Shown here piece by piece: positions 9,492 through 32,000 of a stretch of DNA of 32,000 nucleotides; the first letter of the stretch is position 1, and each line of letters begins with the position of its first letter. Below the pieces are notes generated by a model, which did no database searches, was not told the origin of the DNA, and saw only the letters and a list, made by a program, of their open reading frames with translations. Made by a program: the position numbers and the translations under genes. The DNA lies in NCBI RefSeq assembly GCF_007748075.1, contig NZ_CP036280.1, positions 240,001 through 272,000 of the forward strand, given 5' to 3'. Source of the stretch: Mucisphaera calidilacus (GTDB lineage: Bacteria > Planctomycetota > Phycisphaerae > Phycisphaerales > Phycisphaeraceae).

Positions 9492-10793
9492 TCACGCCAC
9501 GCGGCGACGCAGACCAGCCAGCACGCCCAGGCCGATCAACGCGGCACTCGCGGGCTCGGGAACGTCAACCAGCTCGCCGATCGCCTCAATACCATTGATG
9601 TCAATGTACGCGCGGCTGTCATCGGGCAGGCCGACAATACCAAGGTCACTCAAAGCGTAAGCATGATCCCAGAGGTGGCCGCCGTGCCACAGGTACCCGA
9701 CGAACCCGCTGCTGTCCATCACGAACAGCTCCGAACCCGTCGCGTAGTAACCATCCGGATCAGCCGGATCAACAACCTGCTGGATGCTGAAGATGATCGA
9801 GTCCACCGTACTGCTCGTAGGCGGCTCCGCGCCCGGATCAAAGCGGTCGAACACGTCACTGTCACCCACCACGTCACGCACCATCAACGCGTCCAGGTTG
9901 ATCGCCTCCACACCCGGGAAACCCTCCGTGTCCGACGCCGACGCCGTGCTCGGGACCGGACCCAGCAGCGTCTCCACCGCGCCCACGATGTCCGTCCACA
10001 TCAGGTAAGGCACACTCGTGCCCGCGCCAACGTCGTAACTCCACACCGACACGCCGCCCGTCGTCACGTCAACGTCCAGCGAATACTTGTCCGCGTCACC
10101 CGTCGTCGCGGGCTCCGGACCCCAGACCTCAAGGCCGTCAACGTCCTTCGGCGCAGGCATCCCGTTCACCGACGGAGCCGGCGTCCAAAGCGACTGAACC
10201 GCATAGCCCGAGTAGAAACCCGATTCCTCGATCGAGATGTCACCCGAGCCGCCGATCGTGTTCCCGTTCGTCAGCAGCACAGGACCACTCGGCGGAACCG
10301 TGGGCACCGTCGAAGGCGTCTCAAGAATCGGCGGGCCGCCCGTCGCCGTGGGCACATACCGAGCCACCGTGTCCTCGATCGTGAAGATCAGGTGCGGACG
10401 ATCCGAAAACTCGGGCCGCAGACCCGGCGTGTACAACTGGCGATACAACGCATCGGCGTGATTCGCCAAAGCGTCCACCTGCTGCTCACGCGGGTAGTTC
10501 GGCCCGCGACTGCCCGAGTAGTCCAGCCCGTCCATCGCACCACCCAGGCCGTCCCACGCGATCACCTGCTCCGGATCAGGCACGCCGCCCGCGCCCGCCG
10601 TCGACTCGTCCATGTCGTGCGAGTACTCCTTGCCGAACACAAGGTCAGGCGTGATCACACCCGGACCCAACGCCGGATACGCACCGGGCGGCAAAGCGAT
10701 CGGCGAATACGGGATCGTCGCCATCGCCGAACCACTCATCGCACTCAAGGCCAGTCCCGCTCCGATCAAACGCGCTGTCTGCAAACGATTCAT
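9492..10793 (-). CDS. secreted PEP-CTERM sorting-domain protein, function unknown
   Basis: ATG at 10793, 7 nt after GGGAG. Signal peptide MNRLQTARLIGAGLALSAMSGSAMA. C-terminal VPEPASAALIGLGVLAGLRRRVA is PEP motif, hydrophobic helix and basic tail. Confidence 0.85.
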   Translation of the reverse strand: MNRLQTARLIGAGLALSAMSGSAMATIPYSPIALPPGAYPALGPGVITPDLVFGKEYSHDMDESTAGAGGVPDPEQVIAWDGLGGAMDGLDYSGSRGPNYPREQQVDALANHADALYRQLYTPGLRPEFSDRPHLIFTIEDTVARYVPTATGGPPILETPSTVPTVPPSGPVLLTNGNTIGGSGDISIEESGFYSGYAVQSLWTPAPSVNGMPAPKDVDGLEVWGPEPATTGDADKYSLDVDVTTGGVSVWSYDVGAGTSVPYLMWTDIVGAVETLLGPVPSTASASDTEGFPGVEAINLDALMVRDVVGDSDVFDRFDPGAEPPTSSTVDSIIFSIQQVVDPADPDGYYATGSELFVMDSSGFVGYLWHGGHLWDHAYALSDLGIVGLPDDSRAYIDINGIEAIGELVDVPEPASAALIGLGVLAGLRRRVA

Positions 10794-23323: not shown

Positions 23324-23500
23324 GAGCAAACTCCACAATCAGACCCATGAAACCCTCGATCCGGCCACAGTTTAACCGTTTCACCGAGCCTGAACAGCCC
23401 CCAATCCGCCATTTCACACACTTATTCTCACACCCGGGTGGCTGTGGACAGACCGAGTCTGCGAGGGCTGCCCACAGATCCCAGTGTTTTCTTAACCCCC

Positions 23501-23567
23501 ACGAGCCCCAAGCGCGAGCTTGGGGTGCCCACACCCCTACGAGCCCCAAGCGCAAGCTTGGGGCGCC
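23501..23567. repeat. two tandem copies of a 29-nt unit, each forming an 8-bp hairpin closed by a GNRA tetraloop
   Basis: ACGAGCCCCAAGC-GCGA-GCTTGGGGTGCC (23501-23529) and ACGAGCCCCAAGC-GCAA-GCTTGGGGCGCC (23539-23567). The stem is CCCCAAGC/GCTTGGGG. They lie in the divergent intergenic region between pulA and the giant pentapeptide gene. Confidence 0.7.
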
Positions 23568-23718
23568 ACACCGCAACCGAGTCCCCGAGGTTGCTGTTTG
23601 TAAACCCTCCCAACCCCGACCAACACCCAACGCCGAATCGAAGGACTCCCAAAAAAAGTCCACGAAATCCTCTGTCCGTGATAAACTTTCACCATTGCCT
23701 CACCACGGAGAGAGAGCC

Positions 23719-26700
23719 ATGACACGCATCACTTCCGGGGGCCTCGCCGCCCTCGCGTTCACCCTCGCGACCTCAGCACATGCCGACATCAAGCAGTGGG
23801 AGTACATCGACCCCGCAAACCCCGATCTGGGCCGCCAGCGATCCACCACCCTCGCTCCCGACGGCGCAGGACGCGACGCCACCCCCAACGCCATCCTGAA
23901 TGACCTCGACCTCACCAAGGCGTGGCTGCGCTCGGCAGACCTCACCAACGCCAACTTGGGAGGTGCTACGCTGACCAACGCCGACCTGACCGGGGCCTAC
24001 CTCTACCAAGCCACACTGACCGACGCCAACCTCACCAACGCCAACATCACCGAGGCAAACCTCTACCAAGCCACACTGACCAACGCCAACATCGCCGGTG
24101 CAGTTTTTCATGACACCACTTCTCGCGGCTTTACCGCAACGCAGCTCTACAGCACCGCCAGCTACCAGAACAAGGACCTCAGCGGTCTGAACCTGGGCAA
24201 TAACGACCTCACCGGCTGGGACTTCACCGACCAGAACCTCACGGAGGCAGACTTCGACAACGCCACACTGACCGATGCCAACCTGAGCAACGCTAACCTC
24301 ACCGACGCAGACTTCGAAGAAGCCATACTGACCGATGCCGACCTGAGCAACGCCGACATCACCAAGGCAAACCTCTACCAAGCCACACTGACCGACGCCA
24401 ACCTCACCAACGCCAACATCACCGAGGCAAACCTCTACCAAGCCACACTGACCAACGCCAACATCGCCGGTGCAGTTTTTCATGACACCACTTCTCGCGG
24501 CTTTACCGCAACGCAGCTCTACAGCACCGCCAGCTACCAGAACAAGGACCTCAGCGGCGTGAGCCTAAGCGGTAACGACCTCACCGGCTGGGACTTCACC
24601 GACCAGAACCTCACGGAGGCAGACTTCGAAGAAGCCATACTGACCGATGCCGACCTGAGCAACGCCGACATCACCAAGGCAAACCTCACCAACGCCAACC
24701 TCACCAACGCCAACATCACCGAGGCAGATTTTCGTTACACCACCTCTCGTGGTTTCACCGCCAGCCAACTCTACAGCACCGCCAGCTACCAGAACAAGGA
24801 CCTCAGCGGCCTGAACCTGAGGGGCAACGACCTCACCGGCTGGGACTTCACCGACCAGAACCTCACGGAGGCAAACTTCCGCTATGCCACGCTCACCAAC
24901 GCCGACCTGTCCGACGCAATCATCACCGGGGCATCCTTCTATTCAACCACCTCTCGTGGTTTCACCGCAGCCCAGCTCTACAGCACCGCCAGCTACCAGA
25001 ACAAGGACCTCAGCGGCGTGAGCCTAAGCGGTAACGACCTCACCGGCTGGGACCTCGCCGACCAGAACCTCACCGGGGCCTACTTCTACGGCGCCACGCT
25101 GACCAACGCCAACCTCACCAACGCCAACATCACCGAGGCAGATTTTGGTTACACCACCTCTCGTGGTTTCACCGCCAGCCAGCTCTACAGCACCGCCAGC
25201 TACCAGAACAAGGACCTCAGCGGCGTGAGCCTAAGCGGTAACGACCTCACCGGCTGGGACTTCACCGACCAGAACCTCACGGAGGCATCCTTCCACTATG
25301 CCTGGCTCACCAACGCCGATCTGACCAACGCCAACCTCACCTGGGCCTACCTCTACAACGCCGACCTGACCAACGCCGACCTGAGCAACGCCAACATCAC
25401 CGAGGCAGATTTTGGTTACACCACCTCTCGTGGTTTCACCGCCAGCCAGCTCTACAGCACCGCCAGCTACCAGAACAAGGACCTCAGCGGTCTGAACCTG
25501 GGCTATAACGACCTCACCGGCTGGGACTTCTCCGGTCAGAACCTCACCGATGCAGACTTCGAGTCTGCCACGCTGACCAACGCCGACCTGAGCAACGCCG
25601 TCATCGCCGGTGCAGTTTTTTATTACAGCACCTATCGTGGTTTCACCGCCAGCCAGCTCTACAGCACCGCCAGCTACCAGAACAAGGACCTCAGCGGCGT
25701 GAGCCTAAGCGGTAACGACCTCACCGGCTGGGATTTCTCCGGTCAGAACCTCACCGATGCAGACTTCGAGTCTGCCACGCTGACCAACGCCGACCTGACC
25801 AACGCCGACCTGACCAACGCCAACATCACCGAGGCAAACCTCTACCAAGCCACACTGACCAACGCCAACCTCACCAACGCCAACATCACCGAGGCAGATT
25901 TTCGTTACACCACCTCTCATGGTTTCACCGCCAGCCAACTCTACAGCACCGCCAGCTACCAGAACAAGGACCTCAGCGGCGTGAGCCTAAGAGGTAACGA
26001 CCTCACCGGCTGGGACTTCACCGGCCAGAACCTCACGGAGGCATCCTTCCACTATGCCTGGCTCACCAACGCCGACCTGACCAACGCCGTCATCGCCGGT
26101 GCAGTTTTTTATTACAGCACCTATCGTGGTTTCACCGCCAGCCAGCTCTACAGCACCGCCAGCTACCAGAACAAGGACCTCAGCGGCGTGAGCCTAAGGG
26201 GTAACGACCTCACCGGCTGGGACTTCACCGACCAGAACCTCACGGAGGCATCCTTCCTCTATGCCACGCTGACCAACGCCGACCTGAGCAACGCCGACAT
26301 CACCAAGGCAAACCTCTACCAAGCCACACTGACCAACGCCAACCTCACCAACGCCAACATCACCGAGGCAAACCTCTTCCAAGCCACACTGACCAACGCC
26401 AACCTCACCAACGCCAACATCACCGAGGCAGATTTTCGTTACGCCACCTATCGTGGTTTCACCGCCAGCCAGCTCTACAGCACCGCCAGCTACCAGAACA
26501 AGGACCTCAGCGGTCTGAACCTGGGCTATAACGACCTCACCGGCTGGGACTTCTCCGGTCAGAACCTCACCGATGCAGACTTCGAGTCTGCCACGCTGAC
26601 CAACGCCGACCTGAGCAACGCCAACATCGCCCGGGCTAGCTTTTCTAACACGACCTCTAGCGGCTTCACCGCAGCCCAGCTCTACAGCACCGCCAGCTAC

Positions 26701-27558
26701 CAGAACAAGGACCTCAGCGGCGTGAGCCTAAGCTATAACGACCTCACCGGCTGGGACTTCACCGACCAGAACCTCACTGAGGCCTACTTCTACGGCGCCA
26801 CGCTGACCAACGCCGACCTGAGCAACGCCGACACCAGAGGATCCTACGGGTTGACCAGCGACCAACTGCTTTCAGCCGCCGACACCACCAACCTCATCCA
26901 CCCCGACGGCCACGTCGAGGGCTTGACTCTCGTTGCCAGCCAGACCTTCCGCGTCTGGGACTTTATGCCGCACAGAGAGACGCTTCCGATCATCCCCATC
27001 ACCATCGAGCAGCACCTCACCCTCGACCCCGCCGCCACCTTCCGCATGGTCTTCGAGGACGACCAGTGGGGCTCCCTCATCCAGTTCGCCGACCCCGGCA
27101 CCCCCGTCACCCTCGCAGGCACCCTCCTCCTCGAGTTCGACGACACCCTCACCCTCGACGACCTGCTCCTCCTCGACGGCGTCACCTACCAGCTCTTCGA
27201 CTGGACCGATGCCAACATCACCGGAGCCTTCGACAGCATTACCTACGACGGCCCTGGCAGTTTCGACACCTCTCTGCTCATGACCACGGGTGAAGTCACC
27301 TACAACTTCGCATCCGGCCTCCCCGGTGATGCCAACAGCGATGGCAGTGTGGATCTCTTGGATCTCTCAATCCTGGCAAGCAACTTCAATCAATCAGGAG
27401 ACTACGAGCAGGGCGACTTCAACGGCGACAACACCATCGACCTCCTCGACCTCTCCATCCTCGCCAGCAACTTCGGCAACACCACCATCCCGACCCCCGC
27501 GACCCTCCCGCTGACCACCCTCGGGCTCCTCTTAATCACCCGCCGACCCGCCGCCTGA
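23719..27558 (+). CDS. giant secreted pentapeptide-repeat protein (1279 aa) with uncharacterised pre-anchor domain, dockerin-like twin repeat and variant PEP-CTERM tail
   Basis: ATG at 23719 after GGAGAGAGAG gives the signal peptide MTRITSGGLAALAFTLATSAHA; the 124 upstream in-frame codons of the track ORF are not coding-like. There are hundreds of A(D/N)LXX pentapeptide units, organised in 11 modules each opened by RGFTA.QLYSTASYQNKDLSG. The C-terminus carries GDANSDGSVDLLDLSILASNF...GDFNGDNTIDLLDLSILASNFG and then IPTPATLPLTTLGLLLITRRPAA. Confidence 0.9.
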   Translation: MTRITSGGLAALAFTLATSAHADIKQWEYIDPANPDLGRQRSTTLAPDGAGRDATPNAILNDLDLTKAWLRSADLTNANLGGATLTNADLTGAYLYQATLTDANLTNANITEANLYQATLTNANIAGAVFHDTTSRGFTATQLYSTASYQNKDLSGLNLGNNDLTGWDFTDQNLTEADFDNATLTDANLSNANLTDADFEEAILTDADLSNADITKANLYQATLTDANLTNANITEANLYQATLTNANIAGAVFHDTTSRGFTATQLYSTASYQNKDLSGVSLSGNDLTGWDFTDQNLTEADFEEAILTDADLSNADITKANLTNANLTNANITEADFRYTTSRGFTASQLYSTASYQNKDLSGLNLRGNDLTGWDFTDQNLTEANFRYATLTNADLSDAIITGASFYSTTSRGFTAAQLYSTASYQNKDLSGVSLSGNDLTGWDLADQNLTGAYFYGATLTNANLTNANITEADFGYTTSRGFTASQLYSTASYQNKDLSGVSLSGNDLTGWDFTDQNLTEASFHYAWLTNADLTNANLTWAYLYNADLTNADLSNANITEADFGYTTSRGFTASQLYSTASYQNKDLSGLNLGYNDLTGWDFSGQNLTDADFESATLTNADLSNAVIAGAVFYYSTYRGFTASQLYSTASYQNKDLSGVSLSGNDLTGWDFSGQNLTDADFESATLTNADLTNADLTNANITEANLYQATLTNANLTNANITEADFRYTTSHGFTASQLYSTASYQNKDLSGVSLRGNDLTGWDFTGQNLTEASFHYAWLTNADLTNAVIAGAVFYYSTYRGFTASQLYSTASYQNKDLSGVSLRGNDLTGWDFTDQNLTEASFLYATLTNADLSNADITKANLYQATLTNANLTNANITEANLFQATLTNANLTNANITEADFRYATYRGFTASQLYSTASYQNKDLSGLNLGYNDLTGWDFSGQNLTDADFESATLTNADLSNANIARASFSNTTSSGFTAAQLYSTASYQNKDLSGVSLSYNDLTGWDFTDQNLTEAYFYGATLTNADLSNADTRGSYGLTSDQLLSAADTTNLIHPDGHVEGLTLVASQTFRVWDFMPHRETLPIIPITIEQHLTLDPAATFRMVFEDDQWGSLIQFADPGTPVTLAGTLLLEFDDTLTLDDLLLLDGVTYQLFDWTDANITGAFDSITYDGPGSFDTSLLMTTGEVTYNFASGLPGDANSDGSVDLLDLSILASNFNQSGDYEQGDFNGDNTIDLLDLSILASNFGNTTIPTPATLPLTTLGLLLITRRPAA
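24001..26830 (+). repeat. intragenic higher-order tandem repeats (11 modules of about 69-123 codons) with long perfectly identical DNA blocks
   Basis: For example, 24001-24185 is identical to 24373-24557 (185 nt, offset 372). The block CAGCTCTACAGCACCGCCAGCTACCAGAACAAGGACCTCAGCGG recurs 11 times. Other blocks of about 110-160 nt recur near 25441/26464 and 25598/26086. Confidence 0.85.
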
Positions 27559-27582
27559 GAACCGATACTTTCTTTCACCCCC

Positions 27583-27629
27583 ACCCCCTGATTCCGGGGG
27601 TCGCGCGCACAAGGACGGTTCTTGTGCGC
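27583..27629 (+). terminator. two consecutive hairpins after the giant gene stop (terminator-like, no T-run)
   Basis: ACCCCC-TGATTCC-GGGGGT (27583-27601) and GCGCACAAG-GACGGTT-CTTGTGCGC (27605-27629), 25-70 nt after the stop at 27556-27558. Confidence 0.4.
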
Positions 27630-27640
27630 ACGTCGTGACC

Positions 27641-27730
27641 AAAAACAGGCCCTTTTTGGACCAAAACGCCCCAAAACGGACGAAAACGAACCCAAAACGC
27701 TCGAAAACGACCCGAAACGAACCCGAAAAA
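27641..27730. repeat. helically phased A-tract array (predicted intrinsically curved DNA)
   Basis: A4-5 tracts start at 27641, 27663, 27673, 27683, 27694, 27704, 27715 (A3) and 27726, most as AAAACG. From 27663 on the spacing is 10, 10, 11, 10, 11, 11 nt. A T5 tract lies at 27653. Confidence 0.7.
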
Positions 27731-27784
27731 GTGTAAATTCCTGCAAAGTCGTCAGACTGTGCGCGCCGCAACCCCCACAAAAGA

Positions 27785-27810
27785 AGCCCCGGCCGAAATC
27801 GACCGGGGCT
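27785..27810 (-). terminator. orphan rho-independent terminator on the minus strand
   Basis: AGCCCCGG / CCGGGGCT 8-bp stem with a 10-nt loop. On the minus strand it is followed by CTTCTTTTGTG. It lies about 375 nt downstream of the nearest minus-strand stop (28183). Confidence 0.45.
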
Positions 27811-28182
27811 GCCTCTCCCTCGTCCACACCCCCACCTCCCCCCCCTCGGAGAGAAGAAAGAGCAAAACACGCCGTGCGTCCATTACCCCGTCACACAAGG
27901 GTCGGCTGACATAAAGACATTCAAAGTAATCTTTTATGCCAGTAAGACTAAACCGGGGTACTCCGTGACGGCGTATCCCGGGTGGGTCAGGGGTCCTTCT
28001 CAAGTTCCGGGCCGGCCTCGAGATCAGCGGCAGACGTCACCCGTCGCCCGCCAGCCTCCCTCTCAGGCAGCCATGCCCAAAATTCCCTGACAATAAAGGG
28101 TTACGAGCCTCCACCCGACGCCCTGCGCGACGCAGACGAAAAAACCCCCAGGCCGCGCAGACGGCACAACAGACCGCCAGCA

Positions 28183-30549
28183 TCAATCCAGCGAGCTCAG
28201 GATCATCGACGTGAAGTCATTCATGTAACTGTGTTTATGCGCCTGCTTACGCAGCCACTCCGCCTGCCGCGGGTGTGTCTGCGCCAATGCCAGATACGTC
28301 AGCTGCAGCCGCTCGTACCCGAACGTGACCCGCAGTTCGACGCCGTTCGGCAGACGGACCGAGCTCTCCAGCAGGTCGGCCAACTCTTGCCCATCTGAAC
28401 CCGCGTCGCGCATAAAGACCTTGGCACGATTGAGTTGTGATTCGGCACGTTCATTCTGCCCCGCATCGCGCATCAGCACAAAAAGCAGCAGACGTTCGAA
28501 CGCGCTGTCCTCAACGATGCCCTGCTCGAGTAGATTCAGAGCGGTATCCCAGTCGCGATCGATCAGAGCATTCACGTAAGCATAGTTTTCGTCTTCGCTT
28601 GCGTGCGACAGCTCCGCGTAGGCGTCGAGATCGCCTCTGGCCTCGTGCATCGCAAGCGTCAGTTCGTTGGTGAGCGTGGTCGCGGTCTCCGGCTCGATCT
28701 CGGGGTTGAGTCGGCGGAGATCGCGCTGGAACCGGGCGATGACGCGCTCGGCCTCGCGTTCCTGACCGCTGGCGGCCAGCAGGGCGACGTGCTGGCGGGT
28801 GAGGTCGAAGTCGTAGTCATTCTCGTAGAGCCGGGCTTCGGTTTCGGCGATGAGTTGCTCGTAGTGGCCGCAGGCGAGTTTGAGGTCGTAGGCGAGGTTG
28901 GCGAAGGTACTGTTGTTCGGCATCGCGCGGGTCGAGCGATCGTTGGCTTCGAGGGCGGAGGCGAAGTAGCCCATGAGCTTGAGGCGGAAGGCTCGGGCGT
29001 GGTTGAGGTAGGGATGATCGGGATGGCGGGCGAGGCCGCGTTCGACCCGTTGTGCGGCGTGTTCGTGATCATTGATTGTGCGAGCGTAGAGGTAGATCAG
29101 GTCGGGGTTGTCCGGCTCGGCCTCGTGGCGTTGTCGGTATTCGGCGACGAGGTCGACCTCGGGCTGGGTGGATTCGATATAGGTCTGGTAGGCGCGGTGC
29201 CACTCGACAAGGACGGGGCGTGCTTCGAGGTGGGTCTGTGCGAGGCGGAGGAATTCGTCTTCGCCAAGGAGGCCGAGTGTGAAGGAGGGGACGTGTGGCT
29301 CGTTCGGCGTGTAGGTTGCGGCGCGTTCGAGGTATTCGGCCGTGGTCTCCATGCCGTACTCGTCGTGGAGGAAGCTGAGTTTTTCGCCGAGTTGTACGTT
29401 CCGGATGATGTTGCAGGCGGACTTCCAGACGACGCTCTGGTCGGAGGGTATGTCCATCTCGTCGGGGAGTTCGCGCATGGGGTAGTCGATGCCGGTGAGG
29501 TGGTGGAGTGTGGCGGGGGTGTGGATCTCGTATTCGTAGCCTTCGCCCAGCTTGGGGCGGATGGAGTAGGCGGCGTTTTCGTGGGTGACGAGTGCCATCT
29601 GGTCGGGGTTGATGACGTAGGTGTTTCGGCCGAGGACGCGGTCCCAGAAGGTGGTGTTGAGGTTGATGCGGGTGGCGGGGAACTGGAAATCGCCGGGCAC
29701 GGGTTCGACGGCGACTTCGCCGTAGGTGAGTTTGATCTTGGGGGTGCGGTTGGGTCGGAGCATGACGGTCTGCGTGTCGATCATGACTTTGTACGGCTCG
29801 CTGATGCCGCTGACGACGTAGACCTTGTCGGTGGTGTTGTCGAGGAGTGCCGCGACGCCGAAGATGAGCAGGGGGATGACAAAAAGCAGGACAAAGACGG
29901 CGGCGACGACGAGAAGGAAGGCGCGGTAGATGAAGCTGCGTTTGCGGCTGCCGGGCGCCCTGATCTTAACCTGCTTCGGGGCGCGTCCGGAGCGGAGGCT
30001 TTTCTCGAGTCGCTTGCGTCGCTGCCTGATGCTTTTCCTGAACTGGCGGGCTCGTTCGGGGTAGAGCTGTTCGTGTCGGTCGAGTTGGTCGAGCGCGGCT
30101 TGCGCGTCGCCTAGCCTGGTGTAGGCATCGGTGAGCTGGATGAGCAGAGCGCCGGCTTCTTCGGCCTGCTGGCTGACGAGTTCGTCGGTATGGGCCTGGG
30201 CCTCTTCGATCTGGTTGGTCTGGATGAGGACTTCGATGAGTTGTAGGAGGGTTTGCTTGTCGTGGCTGAGGGCGAGTGATGCGGAGAGTGCGTCGAGGGC
30301 GAGCTCGTCTACGCATCGGTTGTAGGCGACGGCGGCGGCGAGGCGGAGGGTGTCGGGGTTGTCGGACTGCTCGTCGATCACGCTTTGGAGCATGGGCTTT
30401 TTCTGTTGATCGCTCATGCAGGTGACGGCGAGTTCGAGAAGCTCGCGTGCGTACTCGGCGGTGGGGCTGTTCTCGTAGTTCTGTTTGACGGACGGCCAGC
30501 GGACGTCGTGGAGCTGTTCCCAGTCACGGTGCGGGACCATGGTGCCCAT
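28183..30549 (-). CDS. large membrane protein with TPR-like helical repeat regions on both sides of a central TM segment (minimal ORF; see the upstream extension 30550-30738)
   Basis: 788-aa track ORF. A basic stretch plus a hydrophobic segment (RKRSFIYRAFLLVVAAVFVLLFVIPLLIFGVAALL) is flanked by helical repeat-like sequence with a beta-rich insert after the TM. No Shine-Dalgarno sequence precedes the ATG at 30549, unlike most genes here. Confidence 0.85.
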   Translation of the reverse strand: MGTMVPHRDWEQLHDVRWPSVKQNYENSPTAEYARELLELAVTCMSDQQKKPMLQSVIDEQSDNPDTLRLAAAVAYNRCVDELALDALSASLALSHDKQTLLQLIEVLIQTNQIEEAQAHTDELVSQQAEEAGALLIQLTDAYTRLGDAQAALDQLDRHEQLYPERARQFRKSIRQRRKRLEKSLRSGRAPKQVKIRAPGSRKRSFIYRAFLLVVAAVFVLLFVIPLLIFGVAALLDNTTDKVYVVSGISEPYKVMIDTQTVMLRPNRTPKIKLTYGEVAVEPVPGDFQFPATRINLNTTFWDRVLGRNTYVINPDQMALVTHENAAYSIRPKLGEGYEYEIHTPATLHHLTGIDYPMRELPDEMDIPSDQSVVWKSACNIIRNVQLGEKLSFLHDEYGMETTAEYLERAATYTPNEPHVPSFTLGLLGEDEFLRLAQTHLEARPVLVEWHRAYQTYIESTQPEVDLVAEYRQRHEAEPDNPDLIYLYARTINDHEHAAQRVERGLARHPDHPYLNHARAFRLKLMGYFASALEANDRSTRAMPNNSTFANLAYDLKLACGHYEQLIAETEARLYENDYDFDLTRQHVALLAASGQEREAERVIARFQRDLRRLNPEIEPETATTLTNELTLAMHEARGDLDAYAELSHASEDENYAYVNALIDRDWDTALNLLEQGIVEDSAFERLLLFVLMRDAGQNERAESQLNRAKVFMRDAGSDGQELADLLESSVRLPNGVELRVTFGYERLQLTYLALAQTHPRQAEWLRKQAHKHSYMNDFTSMILSSLD

Positions 30550-30738
30550 TTTGCATTGCGGGCATTCGCCGAGGATGCGTTTTCGGCCGAGGGGGATCAG
30601 CGGGAGGAGGTAGAAGCAGAAGTAGCGAGAGGTGTCGTAGTCGCGTAGGAGGCCGTTGTGGCCTCAGTGATCGCAGGTGTCTCTGTGCAGCAGGAAGTTC
30701 TTCTGGTTGAGATTCTTAATGCCCCAGACAATCAGCAT
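30550..30738 (-). other. in-frame N-terminal extension of the membrane/TPR gene encoding a zinc-ribbon plus hydrophobic hairpin, interrupted by one TGA (30666-30664)
   Basis: ATG at 30738, preceded by AGGGG and an in-frame stop two codons upstream. It reads MLIVWGIKNLNQKNFLLHRDTCDH-TGA-GHNGLLRDYDTSRYFCFYLLPLIPLGRKRILGECPQCK and runs straight into the ATG at 30549 in the same frame. With Cys at the TGA this would be CxxCG...RYF.FYLLPLIPL...CxxC. Confidence 0.55.
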
Positions 30739-30888
30739 GCGTCAACCCCTTTCGGGGATCATCATACAGGGAGATCGTTTGAGTGTGTCGGGCTGGCGTG
30801 AGGCGTGTGTGAGGGTATGCGTTGTTACTTGTCGCGACCCTACTGCGCTTGCGCGGTGGAGGGCTAAGGCGTGTGCTGCGATTCCGGT

Positions 30889-32000
30889 TCAGGCGCTGCG
30901 TCGCCTGGCGAGGGCGAGGCCGGTGAGGGCGAGTGTGACGAGTGAGTTGGGTTCGGGGATGAGGTGGAAGGTGACTTCGCCTGTGGTCATGAGGCTGGAG
31001 GTGTCGAAGCTGCCGGGGCCGTGGTACTCGATGGCGTCGAAGGTGCCGGTGATGTCGGCGTGGGTCCAGTCGAAGAGCTGGTAGGTGACGCCGTCGAGGA
31101 GCAGGAGGTCTGCGAGCGTGAGGTCGTCGTCGAACTCGAGGATCAGGGTGCCGGCGATCTGGACGGGGGTTTGCGGGTCGGCGAAGGTGATGGTGGAGCC
31201 CCAGTCCTTGTCGGCGAAGACGAGGTGGATGGCGGCGGTGGGCGTCATGATCAGTCGTTCGTGGAAGGTGATGGGGATGGGCTGGTCGTGTGATTTCGGC
31301 TGGTAGTCCCAGATATAGGCTTCGTCGTGGAGGAGCTGGAATCCCTGGAAGGAGCCGTCGGGGCCGATGTAGGTGGCATTGCCTTGAAGGCTGCTCAGTT
31401 GCTCGGGGGTGAGGTTGGTCGCTCCGCGGAAGTCGACAAGTGAGAGTTTGGTCAGCAGGAAGCTGGCCTGATCGAGGTTGGTATTGGTGAGGTTGGTGCT
31501 GTGGAGTGTGGCAACGAAGAAGTTGCTGTGTGCGAGGTTGGCGCCGGCGAGGTCCCAGCCGGAGAGGTCGTGGCCTTCGAGGCCGAGCCCCGGCAGATGG
31601 CCCTGTTGGTAGCTGAGAGTGCTTTCGAGCATGTCGCGGGTGAGTTTGTTGTGGCTGGATGCCGTCGTGTTGAAGTTGGCATAGGCGATGGTGGCGTTCG
31701 TGATGACGATGCCGGTGGTGTTGGTTTCGCTGAGGTCGAGGCGGTCGAGGTTGAAGCCGCTGAGGTCGAGTCCGGTGAGGCTGATGGCGGGGAGCGTGAT
31801 GCCTGAGAGGTCGCGGTGCTGGTAGCTGCGGGTGCTCAGGAGTTTTTGTTGTGAGAAGCCCGTGGTGTCTTTGAGGTTGACGCCCGTGATGGAACTGTTG
31901 GTGAAGTTCGTGGTGGCGAGGTCGGTCTCTTTGAGGCTGGCGTTGGTGAGGTCGACGTCGGTGAAGTCGGTGTTGTGCAGGGTGGCCTTGTCGAGTTTGG
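30889..32000 (-). CDS. pentapeptide-repeat protein, paralogue of 23719-27558, with the same pre-anchor domain and a canonical PEP-CTERM tail (partial; N-terminus beyond the right window edge)
   Basis: The track lists only 30889-31632, but the same frame stays open to position 32000 when translated by hand (...KLDKATLHNTDFTDVDLTNASLKETDLATTNFTNSSITGVNLKDTTGFSQQKLLSTRSYQHRDLSGITL...). It ends IPEPNSLVTLALTGLALARRRSA. Confidence 0.9.
   Translation of the reverse strand, partial: KLDKATLHNTDFTDVDLTNASLKETDLATTNFTNSSITGVNLKDTTGFSQQKLLSTRSYQHRDLSGITLPAISLTGLDLSGFNLDRLDLSETNTTGIVITNATIAYANFNTTASSHNKLTRDMLESTLSYQQGHLPGLGLEGHDLSGWDLAGANLAHSNFFVATLHSTNLTNTNLDQASFLLTKLSLVDFRGATNLTPEQLSSLQGNATYIGPDGSFQGFQLLHDEAYIWDYQPKSHDQPIPITFHERLIMTPTAAIHLVFADKDWGSTITFADPQTPVQIAGTLILEFDDDLTLADLLLLDGVTYQLFDWTHADITGTFDAIEYHGPGSFDTSSLMTTGEVTFHLIPEPNSLVTLALTGLALARRRSA

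Follow-up and report, generated by a model that had tools for sequence, protein, structure and literature searches.

Multi-module pentapeptide-repeat proteins and an interrupted zinc-ribbon/TPR gene at one locus of Mucisphaera calidilacus

In this study, a 32,000-nucleotide stretch of the genome of Mucisphaera calidilacus, of the class Phycisphaerae in the Planctomycetota (contig NZ_CP036280.1, positions 240,001 to 272,000 of the forward strand; hereafter the window, numbered from its first nucleotide) was analysed, and we showed that the three genes filling positions 23719-32000 belong to two families that were never found together in the related loci compared. Two of the genes encode pentapeptide-repeat proteins (PRPs), PRP1 on the plus strand and PRP2 on the minus strand. 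The third, on the minus strand between them, belongs by descent to a family of zinc-ribbon/TPR membrane proteins and contains an in-frame stop codon. Two independent uncharacterised families are probably adjacent here by chance (we put the probability at about 0.62), namely exported PRP rods and an unrelated, probably inactivated membrane scaffold, without forming a functional module. The three genes are as follows.

23719-27558, plus strand: PRP1, a secreted multi-module pentapeptide-repeat protein of 1279 amino acids (aa) (open reading frame (ORF), translation and Pfam)
28183-30738, minus strand: zinc-ribbon/TPR/transmembrane/beta-domain/TPR gene in an 852-codon reading, interrupted at codon 25 (translation and homology)
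30889 to beyond 32000, minus strand: PRP2, a PRP1 paralogue without a dockerin, of which the C-terminal 369 aa lie inside the window

Linkage of the two families

A sequence-only reading of the same DNA proposed the three genes as a candidate envelope module with a dedicated membrane TPR protein. In such a module, the TPR protein would serve the pentapeptide rods in their assembly, anchoring or export. The layout lends itself to such a view. The genes are adjacent, PRP2 and the zinc-ribbon/TPR gene share a strand with the ATG at 30738 lying 150 nt downstream of PRP2, no terminator hairpin is predicted between these two, and the large extracytoplasmic TPR surface could bind a repetitive ligand. 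PRP1 and the zinc-ribbon/TPR gene are convergent, with a 624-bp spacer between them. Related loci argue against the module in both directions of comparison, and it is now very unlikely.

In the forward test, ORFs of at least 80 aa were taken from 82 zinc-ribbon/TPR loci (L001, L002 and L006-L085) with flanks of up to ±10 kb and were searched with PRP1 as the query. A pentapeptide ORF at E<1e-5 was found in 0 of the 82 loci, 13 of which are titled Phycisphaerae, Phycisphaerales or Phycisphaeraceae; pentapeptide ORFs were matched just in three loci which had been fetched via PRP homologues. In the reverse test, a hidden Markov model (HMM) of the zinc-ribbon/TPR family, which recovers 82/82 positives at E<1e-30, was run on 79 PRP loci carrying the insert motif described below (716 kb). 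It gave two weak matches and a true homologue in 0/79 loci. The better of the two, a 43-bit match in the PRP locus L093, was rejected as a generic secreted TPR protein lacking the Cys motifs and WHRxYQ. Gene tables likewise placed no zinc-ribbon/TPR gene beside the PRP homologues P0009, P0023 and P0015, which lie on long contigs. Lack of conservation of the pairing in related genomes had been named in the sequence-only reading as the outcome that would overturn the module, and the pairing was seen in 0/82 and 0/79 loci.

Each family keeps company of its own. In 13 of the 79 loci a second PRP paralogue adjoins the first, as it does in L003 (proteins of 773 and 510 aa) and in L004 (about 1020 and 595 aa), and therefore a close PRP pair needs no third partner. 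The recurrent partner of the zinc-ribbon/TPR family is an M48 protease of ~640 aa, and no member of that protease cluster was found in any PRP locus. An M48 peptidase near the PRP pair of L003 was considered as a bridge between the families and rejected, being a 362-aa protein outside the ~640-aa cluster, with no zinc-ribbon/TPR gene there. Unlike the named matches of the PRP family, the zinc-ribbon/TPR family extends to Verrucomicrobiota, Lentisphaerae and Bacillota-labelled genomes, and its gene is broken by a stop codon at this locus.

The zinc-ribbon/TPR gene and its in-frame TGA

The structure of the 826 residues following the TGA was predicted using AlphaFold (predicted local distance difference test, pLDDT, 92.2; predicted template modelling score, pTM, 0.73). 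The parts of the gene, given in coding order on the minus strand, are as follows.

30553-30675, minus strand: four-Cys zinc ribbon (C-D-H-TGA ... CPQC) and long beta-hairpin with YFCFYLLPLIPLG (AlphaFold strands 7-17, 20-33 and 41-44)
29989-30531, minus strand: putatively cytoplasmic region with about ten TPR-like helices (model residues 45-225) and, after them, a basic linker of low confidence
29833-29934, minus strand: predicted single transmembrane helix FIYRAFLLVVAAVFVLLFVIPLLIFGVAALL (model residues 244-277, one long helix)
29407-29829, minus strand: predicted extracytoplasmic beta-rich domain of about 140 aa (AlphaFold; no Pfam or NCBIfam match)
28195-29391, minus strand: predicted extracytoplasmic TPR-like superhelix of about 24 helices with the motif WHRAYQ at 29185-29202 (AlphaFold and conserved columns)

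The zinc ribbon gave a weak match to Pfam Zn_ribbon_15 (21.3 bits against a cut-off of 28.9), the Pfam matches to TPR_19 and TPR_14 were also weak, and the linker has pLDDT <50 at model residues 233-248. The zinc ribbon and the first TPR block are probably cytoplasmic and the remainder extracytoplasmic in the model, since the basic linker precedes the transmembrane helix and the positive-inside rule then places the N-terminus in the cytoplasm. Thus the order of parts proposed earlier (zinc ribbon, helical repeats, transmembrane helix, beta domain, more repeats) was retained, while the supposed hydrophobic hairpin at the N-terminus is a beta-hairpin and not a membrane hairpin. Foldseek searches of the PDB returned generic TPR scaffolds only (Ctr9, TTC7B, OGT and Naa15).

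A profile built from four members matched 1277 cluster representatives at E<1e-30, nearly all of 840-870 aa and matched end to end, and no curated family model in Pfam or NCBIfam covers this layout. The protein of the window matched the family profile over its full length with 1127 bits; PLIPLG, CPQC, the transmembrane helix and WHRAYQ are present, and the codon of the second Cys is TGA. The eighty genomic loci retrieved come from Planctomycetota (Gemmataceae, Phycisphaerae, Planctomycetaceae and Brocadiia), Verrucomicrobiota, Lentisphaerae and Bacillota-labelled records. Full-length members were observed in the Bacillota-labelled loci L007-L009, L014, L016, L026, L029, L041, L049, L057 and L059 (Acetivibrio, Herbivorax and Clostridiaceae). 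These occurrences should be read with caution, either as horizontal spread beyond the Planctomycetes-Verrucomicrobia-Chlamydiae (PVC) phyla or as binning contamination, as some are metagenome-assembled genomes and one record is marked UNVERIFIED_CONTAM.

A ~640-aa Peptidase_M48 protein (HEFAH; Pfam E 3e-13 to 4e-9) was directly beside the family gene in 16 of the 82 loci. In 15 loci (L002, L027, L052, L053, L058, L065, L071-L073, L076, L078, L080 and L082-L084) it is the next gene downstream on the same strand, after a gap of 0-340 bp, and in one (L006) it lies immediately upstream. This pairing spans Planctomycetota, Verrucomicrobiota and Lentisphaerae and was the only conserved neighbour found; the 32-kb window holds no M48 peptidase. 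Because M48 is the only conserved partner, the family is most likely a protease scaffold. The protein would be a bitopic transmembrane scaffold which, elsewhere, organises or regulates a membrane M48 protease.

Within the 852-codon reading, an in-frame TGA was found at codon 25 (30664-30666, minus strand; ...HRDTCDH-stop-GHNGLL...). The gene had previously been read as one continuous frame of ~850 codons running straight through this triplet, which does not hold. The uninterrupted ORF is 28183-30549 (788 aa), and the NCBI annotation is a 785-aa hypothetical protein with a 100% match. In the first CxxC zinc knuckle, the TGA takes the place of the second Cys. The three homologues compared first have CxxC at this site. 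In an alignment of 83 sequences including the reconstructed window protein, all four Cys (CxxC...CxxC) are invariant in the 82 homologues. At the level of loci, the intact four-Cys motif was present in 80/82 and a stop at a Cys position in 0/82, the other two being ORF-extension artefacts. An SD-like (Shine-Dalgarno-like) AAGGGG precedes the ATG at 30738, and nothing comparable precedes the ATG at 30549, the first start after the TGA, so 30738 was taken as the ancestral start. The 38 codons after the TGA are well conserved (LRDYDTSRYFCFYLLPLIPLGRKRILGECPQCK compared with the consensus LxSYDTxLxFVVxFIPxIPLGRKRILDxCPxC). The N-terminal motif MPxTxNGIGTxYYGK, near-invariant in homologues, is degenerate here (MLIVWGIKNLNQKN, the first 15 codons, 30694-30738, minus strand). 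The TGA is most economically explained by a recent nonsense mutation or by a base-call error, and the gene is a family member by descent which is probably not intact.

Of these two origins, an assembly or sequencing error, with an intact gene in the living strain, is possible at well below even odds. The TGA is one base from TGC or TGT, the sequence between it and the next possible start is still conserved, and the good SD stands at the ATG 30738 and not at the ATG 30549. Against an error, CP036280 is a finished genome and the degenerate NGIGTxYYGK hints at relaxed constraint on the N-terminus.

The alignment of a UGA with a Cys within flanking homology is also the classic Cys/Sec signature of selenoprotein discovery. 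Read in this way, the protein would be a selenoprotein whose zinc or redox knuckle reads C-x-x-U, as the TGA aligns to an invariant Cys, frame and homology continue on both sides, and the 38 codons from the TGA to the next ATG remain conserved. A bacterial SECIS (selenocysteine insertion sequence) is a stem-loop placed shortly downstream of the UGA, and its apical loop contains a G. No hairpin was found here at SECIS distance; the sole stable stem, GAGGCC/GGCCUC, overlaps with the UGA and closes the G-less loop ACAAC, and there was no Rfam match. Furthermore, none of the four Cys positions is TGA in the 82 homologous loci, all three genes use TGA as their ordinary stop, and the near-invariant NGIGTxYYGK is degenerate upstream. 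Selenocysteine is accordingly extremely unlikely.

The pentapeptide-repeat proteins and their insert

PRP1 matched Pfam Pentapeptide (PF00805) with E 7.6e-149 over 21 stretches. Its features and those of the visible part of PRP2 are as follows.

23719-23784, plus strand: PRP1 predicted Sec signal peptide MTRITSGGLAALAFTLATSAHA, cleavage between AHA and D (read from the sequence; family members alike)
23785-23898, plus strand: PRP1 conserved N-terminal family motif DIKQWEYIDPANPDLGRQRSTTLAPDGAG... (common to homologues)
23899-26838, plus strand: PRP1 array of 12 pentapeptide blocks with 11 helical inserts of 19-20 aa between them (regular expression, tandem repeats and AlphaFold)
24127-24183, 24499-24555, 24751-24807, 24958-25014, 25165-25221 and 25432-25488, plus strand: PRP1 inserts 1-6 (regular expression)
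25639-25695, 25921-25977, 26128-26184, 26455-26511 and 26662-26718, plus strand: PRP1 inserts 7-11 (regular expression)
26893-27315, plus strand: PRP1 C-terminal beta-sandwich of ~140 residues, common to PRP2 and the whole family (AlphaFold and family consensus)
27322-27465, plus strand: PRP1 dockerin-type double EF-hand, Ca-binding type (Dockerin_1, 32.2 bits against a cut-off of 22.9)
27487-27555, plus strand: PRP1 degenerate PEP-CTERM-like tail IPTPATLPLTTLGLLLITRRPAA (PTP replaces PEP; only two Arg)
31801-31860 and 31588-31644, minus strand: two divergent PRP2 inserts (GFSQQKLLSTRSYQHRDLSG and LTRDMLESTLSYQQGHLPG, respectively; translation)
30892-30960, minus strand: PRP2 canonical PEP-CTERM signal IPEPNSLVTLALTGLALARRRSA (passes PF07589 and TIGR02595)

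The start of PRP1 was set at 23719 because the SD-like GGAGAGAGAG precedes this ATG and homologues open with a signal peptide followed by ADIxQWEYIDP. The signal peptide itself was predicted by reading the sequence and from the family layout. PRP1 contains no Cys and is rich in Thr (13.8%), Asn (9.5%) and Ser (8.2%), with 148 Asp/Glu to 44 Lys/Arg. The insert reads GFTAxQLYSTASYQNKDLSG and occurs in 11 copies, whose start-to-start spacings of 69, 84, 89, 94, 109 and 124 aa equal 69+5n, so the pentapeptide register is kept between inserts. At the DNA level, tandem repeats with periods of 207, 252, 267, 372 and 474 bp have 83-94% matches, which indicates recent expansion of the array. The C-terminal beta-sandwich had no Pfam or NCBIfam match.

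The visible part of PRP2 matched Pfam Pentapeptide with E 4.2e-14 and ends in the same C-terminal beta-sandwich domain. PRP1 and PRP2 are 48% identical over 302 aa (E 1e-76), and over the last ~62 residues of the shared beta-sandwich the identity rises to about 82% (approximately 27130-27315 and 30961-31146), which points to strong constraint or gene conversion in the part nearest the anchor. The earlier description of two paralogous pentapeptide proteins facing each other was thus borne out, as was that of a periodic non-pentapeptide insert in both, present 11 times in PRP1 and twice in the visible PRP2 exactly as then quoted. In protein-database searches neither PRP1 nor PRP2 had a 100% match, unlike the zinc-ribbon/TPR protein of the same genome; in the public record the two genes may lack annotation or carry a pseudogene flag.

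The C-terminal tails were compared with the PEP-CTERM sorting signal. This signal has a near-invariant Pro-Glu-Pro, a hydrophobic helix of ~14 residues and a C-terminal basic cluster (Haft et al. 2006, PMC1569441), and the proteins bearing it have a signal peptide, are poor in Cys and rich in Thr, Ser and Asn (PMC1569441). The PRP2 tail IPEPNSLVTLALTGLALARRRSA passed both models by narrow margins, with 20.8 against a cut-off of 20.7 for PF07589 and 17.4 against 16 for TIGR02595. The PRP1 tail IPTPATLPLTTLGLLLITRRPAA has PTP for PEP and only RR, and it matched neither PF07589 nor TIGR02595 at E<=10. Exosortase-type anchoring had been proposed for both proteins of the pair; it agrees with PRP2 and with the VPEP tail of the family consensus, while the tail of PRP1 fails both models.

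With the last 380 residues of PRP1 as the query, 951 proteins were found at E<=1e-5 among 8000 candidates scored. Where named, their source is Planctomycetota (Pirellulales, Aeoliella). The proteins are typically of 450-660 aa and are annotated just as 'pentapeptide repeat-containing protein' or YjbI. They consist of a signal peptide and an N-terminal motif, then the modules and a beta-sandwich at the C-terminus, to which a PEP-CTERM tail is usually added. The N-terminal motif is ADI(F/Y)QWEYIDPA(D/N)PxQGK in P0005, P0008, P0010, P0018, P0022 and P0025, and a second type reads DIYRWDTGxVIPGT. The C-terminal domain ends in ...LYTTGEVTLxAVPEP followed by a hydrophobic stretch and RRR.

The signature of the family is the insert (T)TSxGFTxxQLYSTASYQxxDLxG. 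The database members listed have one to six copies of its longer form, (T)TSxGFTxxQLYSTASYQxxDLxGIxLxxNDLxGW(D/N)F. Conservation was assessed in a 61-sequence alignment of members chosen independently of the motif, in which the mean column identity is 22%. In the first insert, the residues Q, L, S, T, S and Y are at least 90% conserved, and in the second insert this holds for Q, L, Y, S, T, S and Y. A metagenome locus scan with a 60-aa insert alignment gave 300 further stretches with the insert, and 79 loci were kept, whose ORFs hold up to 15 inserts and 2096 aa, so that the family ranges from 1 to 15 modules. PRP1 is therefore at the long end of the family and not unique. It has every family feature (the signal peptide, an ADIxQWEYIDP-type motif, the inserts and a beta-sandwich ending in ...LYTTGEVT), and the visible part of PRP2 has the family C-terminal domain and divergent inserts.

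No Pfam or NCBIfam model covers the GFTxxQLYSTASYQ unit. The insert alone matches nothing, and with its flanks it reaches just 13 bits, which come from the flanking repeats. The Pfam family 'Decapeptide' (PF25296) was considered and rejected: its best stretch begins at the insert, yet one module reaches 17.6 bits where the cut-off is 45. The sequence-only reading had called the insert unfamiliar from characterised pentapeptide proteins, and the insert does lie outside both the curated models and the caps and loops listed in PMC8145042. It is not peculiar to this locus, as a family of more than 950 database proteins carries it. No paper naming both 'pentapeptide repeat' and 'PEP-CTERM' was found in the literature searched. 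The pentapeptide, PEP-CTERM, dockerin and TPR components are all of known kinds; the periodic, helix-jointed, PEP-CTERM-tailed pentapeptide architecture is undescribed in the literature searched and the curated libraries, and abundant in databases under a generic name.

For structure prediction, residues 900-1279 of PRP1 and the family alignment were submitted to AlphaFold (pLDDT 92.8, pTM 0.82). In each 69-residue module the insert is modelled as three short helices (for the first insert, model residues 11-13, 17-21 and 24-27), after which ten beta-bridges follow at an exact spacing of 5 residues, corresponding to ten pentapeptides or about 2.5 coils. The 5-residue bridges and the best PDB fold matches, which are pentapeptide proteins, support the prediction of a quadrilateral beta-helix with right-handed coils. 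A final helix, 'GLTSDQLL', leads into about 13 strands that form a beta-sandwich (pLDDT about 90-98 at model residues 166-297), and the dockerin superposes on the type II dockerin 2y3n_B with a Foldseek TM-score of 0.80 and a root-mean-square deviation (rmsd) of 2.1 A over 58 residues.

On the two-module region, the fit of long continuous beta-helices is poor, with an rmsd of 13-15 A across ~280 columns. In the PDB sequence search, '...RGFTAA-QLYSTAS' was aligned to the C-terminal segment 'LRGATVDPVLWRTAS' of a designed solenoid protein. Among solved pentapeptide structures, 13/16 are single domains with alpha-helical caps, and non-repeat loops of 6-24 residues occur in QnrB1, AlbG, HetL and Rfr23 (PMC8145042). 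Because of the solenoid C-terminal alignment and the helix-capped solved PRPs, the insert may be a helical joint resembling a cap, in which a C-cap is merged with the beginning of the following stack, and which recurs between very short stacks. A break or offset at each joint would fit the poor superposition of continuous beta-helices.

Interpretation, surroundings and known systems

From the anatomy, the tails and the structural model, we infer an export route, a rod geometry and a biological role for the PRPs. The protein would cross the inner membrane by means of its Sec signal peptide and be retained there by the C-terminal PEP-CTERM helix until processing by an exosortase, which would hand it to the outer envelope or the exopolysaccharide matrix. 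The mature protein would be a rigid, very acidic and Cys-free rod of short quadrilateral beta-helix stacks of at least 10 pentapeptides each, joined by the conserved ~19-residue helical unit GFTxxQLYSTASYQ. The beta-sandwich (in PRP1 with the Ca-binding dockerin) would lie beside the anchor and the conserved N-terminal motif at the far tip. Module number may change by recombination between near-identical 207-bp units. Growth of Mucisphaera calidilacus strain Pan265 (CP036280) has been described as a viscous colloid, and our best guess for the role of the PRPs is a structural or adhesive fibre of the surface or of this viscous matrix. More widely, and tentatively, the insert-bearing PRPs could form a class of exosortase-sorted surface fibres that spans the phylum Planctomycetota and is so far undescribed. 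These would be chains of very short stacks, each with its own cap, in which the near-invariant QLYSTASY helix would be a rigid joint or a site of recognition or modification and the gain and loss of modules would tune how far the conserved N-terminal tip reaches from a beta-sandwich/dockerin base.

The main rival to a structural fibre is that the PRPs act outside the cytoplasm as mimics or decoys, as acidic DNA-like rods which bind and inhibit nucleic-acid-binding or other enzymes, phage receptor-binding proteins or cations. The strong negative charge (148 Asp/Glu to 44 Lys/Arg) suits such a role, as does the fold itself, which is the DNA-mimic fold of Qnr and MfpA (PMC8145042), and the best NCBIfam matches include Qnr, MfpA and the type III secretion effector PipB. 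However, PRP1 stays below the equivalog cut-offs (Qnr 178.9 against 240; MfpA 164 against 360), and the signal peptide and PEP-CTERM tail place the proteins outside the cytoplasm. The range of 1-15 modules across the family also fits a spacer or fibre better than a mimic of specific shape. A decoy is thus unlikely, and the structural-fibre role is preferred.

Several points weigh against chance adjacency of an exported fibre and an unrelated scaffold as set out here. PRP2 and the zinc-ribbon/TPR gene may be co-transcribed, given the terminator-free 150-nt gap on one strand. The linkage tests cover ±10 kb on mostly metagenome-assembled contigs, and an association of PRP and TPR genes specific to the Mucisphaera lineage would fall outside the comparison, the next homologue of the zinc-ribbon/TPR protein being 28% identical. 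The M48 link is limited to about a fifth of the loci. On the PRP side, the case for the export route appears weak for PRP1, whose tail failed the PEP-CTERM models, and the structural model is compatible with a straight as well as with a kinked or beaded chain of modules. The functions proposed for the PRPs and the TPR protein derive from sequences and models.

Most pentapeptide-repeat proteins lack a known function, and those that have been characterised are either small DNA mimics in the cytoplasm or single domains in the lumen. The exported multi-module family offers a testable entry into extracellular roles of pentapeptide proteins and into the surface and matrix biology of planctomycetes; if the surface-fibre reading is true, it would be the first extracellular structural role for the pentapeptide fold. 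The analysis also removes a false lead, as the adjoining TPR gene stands outside the PRP system, and provides a new one, an ~850-aa zinc-ribbon/TPR scaffold family across the PVC phyla which is recurrently paired with M48. Recording the in-frame stop at an invariant Cys would also usefully correct the annotation of the Mucisphaera calidilacus genome.

The rest of the window contains unrelated housekeeping genes, encoding a pullulanase, a DUF900 hydrolase, alcohol and alanine dehydrogenases, a peroxiredoxin, a nitroreductase, a MacB-type permease, NusG, RmuC and URO-D. An additional PEP-CTERM protein of 433 aa is encoded at 9492-10793 on the minus strand (PF07589, 23.9 bits; no other Pfam domain). 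PEP-CTERM proteins are thus scattered over this genome segment, with more than one type in the window. No exosortase was found among the scanned genes, the search being confined to the 32-kb window of CP036280, and no type IV secretion system genes are near PRP1 among the window genes. Upstream of PRP1, a 38-bp unit occurs twice in tandem at 23495-23572, 150-220 nt before the start, each copy with the palindrome GCCCCAAGCGCGAGCTTGGGG. The region between the convergent genes is as follows.

27559-28182, no strand: convergent spacer with terminator-like hairpins, a repeat of 10-nt units at 27658-27729 and a switch of strand-composition polarity

Positions 27785-27810 and 28174-28194, 3' of the zinc-ribbon/TPR gene, form terminator-like hairpins. 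At 27658-27729, about six units of 10 nt (CCAAAACGAC-like) were observed, overlapping weak terminator-like hairpins. Strand composition switches polarity sharply at ~27559-28182. On the plus strand, the GC skew at the third codon position is -0.14 to -0.62 in all ten genes on the left, whichever strand is coding, and +0.44 and +0.71 in the two genes right of the spacer; the AT skew at the same position mirrors it, at +0.5 to +0.93 on the left, PRP1 excepted. This polarity is that of a replication origin (the minimum of cumulative skew) or of an inversion breakpoint. Neither dnaA nor dnaN is in the window, and the spacer contains no DnaA box of the E. coli type.

Periplasmic M48-TPR proteases of the BepA type are known, and the zinc-ribbon/TPR family, in 16 of 82 loci, likewise pairs M48 with large TPR surfaces, predicted on both sides of the membrane. 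Unlike in the BepA type, the TPR and protease parts are separate proteins, and the layout of four-Cys ribbon, transmembrane helix and beta domain is unique.

Among substrates of the PEP-CTERM/exosortase (EpsH) system, such as NCBIfam floc_PepA, PRP2 and its family share the VPEP, the hydrophobic helix and the Arg cluster. PRP1 resembles the PEP-CTERM cohort (PMC1569441) in its signal peptide, its lack of Cys, its richness in Thr, Ser and Asn and its few basic residues. The passenger differs, being here an array of pentapeptide repeats. With the helix-capped PRPs (Np275/Np276, Rfr32, Rfr23, At2g44920, HetL and Alr1298; PMC8145042) the proteins share the repeat and the predicted right-handed beta-helix, and several of those solved proteins are likewise extracytoplasmic, in the thylakoid lumen. 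However, the solved helix-capped PRPs are single domains of about 100-250 aa, whereas the present family strings together 2 to more than 12 short stacks with a conserved helical unit reiterated between them and adds a beta-sandwich, sometimes a dockerin, and a PEP-CTERM tail. Among pentapeptide proteins that have been solved or described, none is known to have such a periodic architecture.

DotG/IcmE of the Legionella Dot/Icm type IVB secretion system is a 1048-aa envelope protein with a central pentapeptide array and a structural role. The PRP1 modules match it (PDB E about 4e-11; NCBIfam T4SS_IcmE_DotG, 220 bits against a cut-off of 750), while DotG is without QLYSTASY inserts in the aligned region and without PEP-CTERM. 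Qnr and MfpA have the pentapeptide fold and an acidic surface, as PRP1 has, but they are cytoplasmic dimers of about 200 aa, whereas PRP1 has a signal peptide and 1279 residues.

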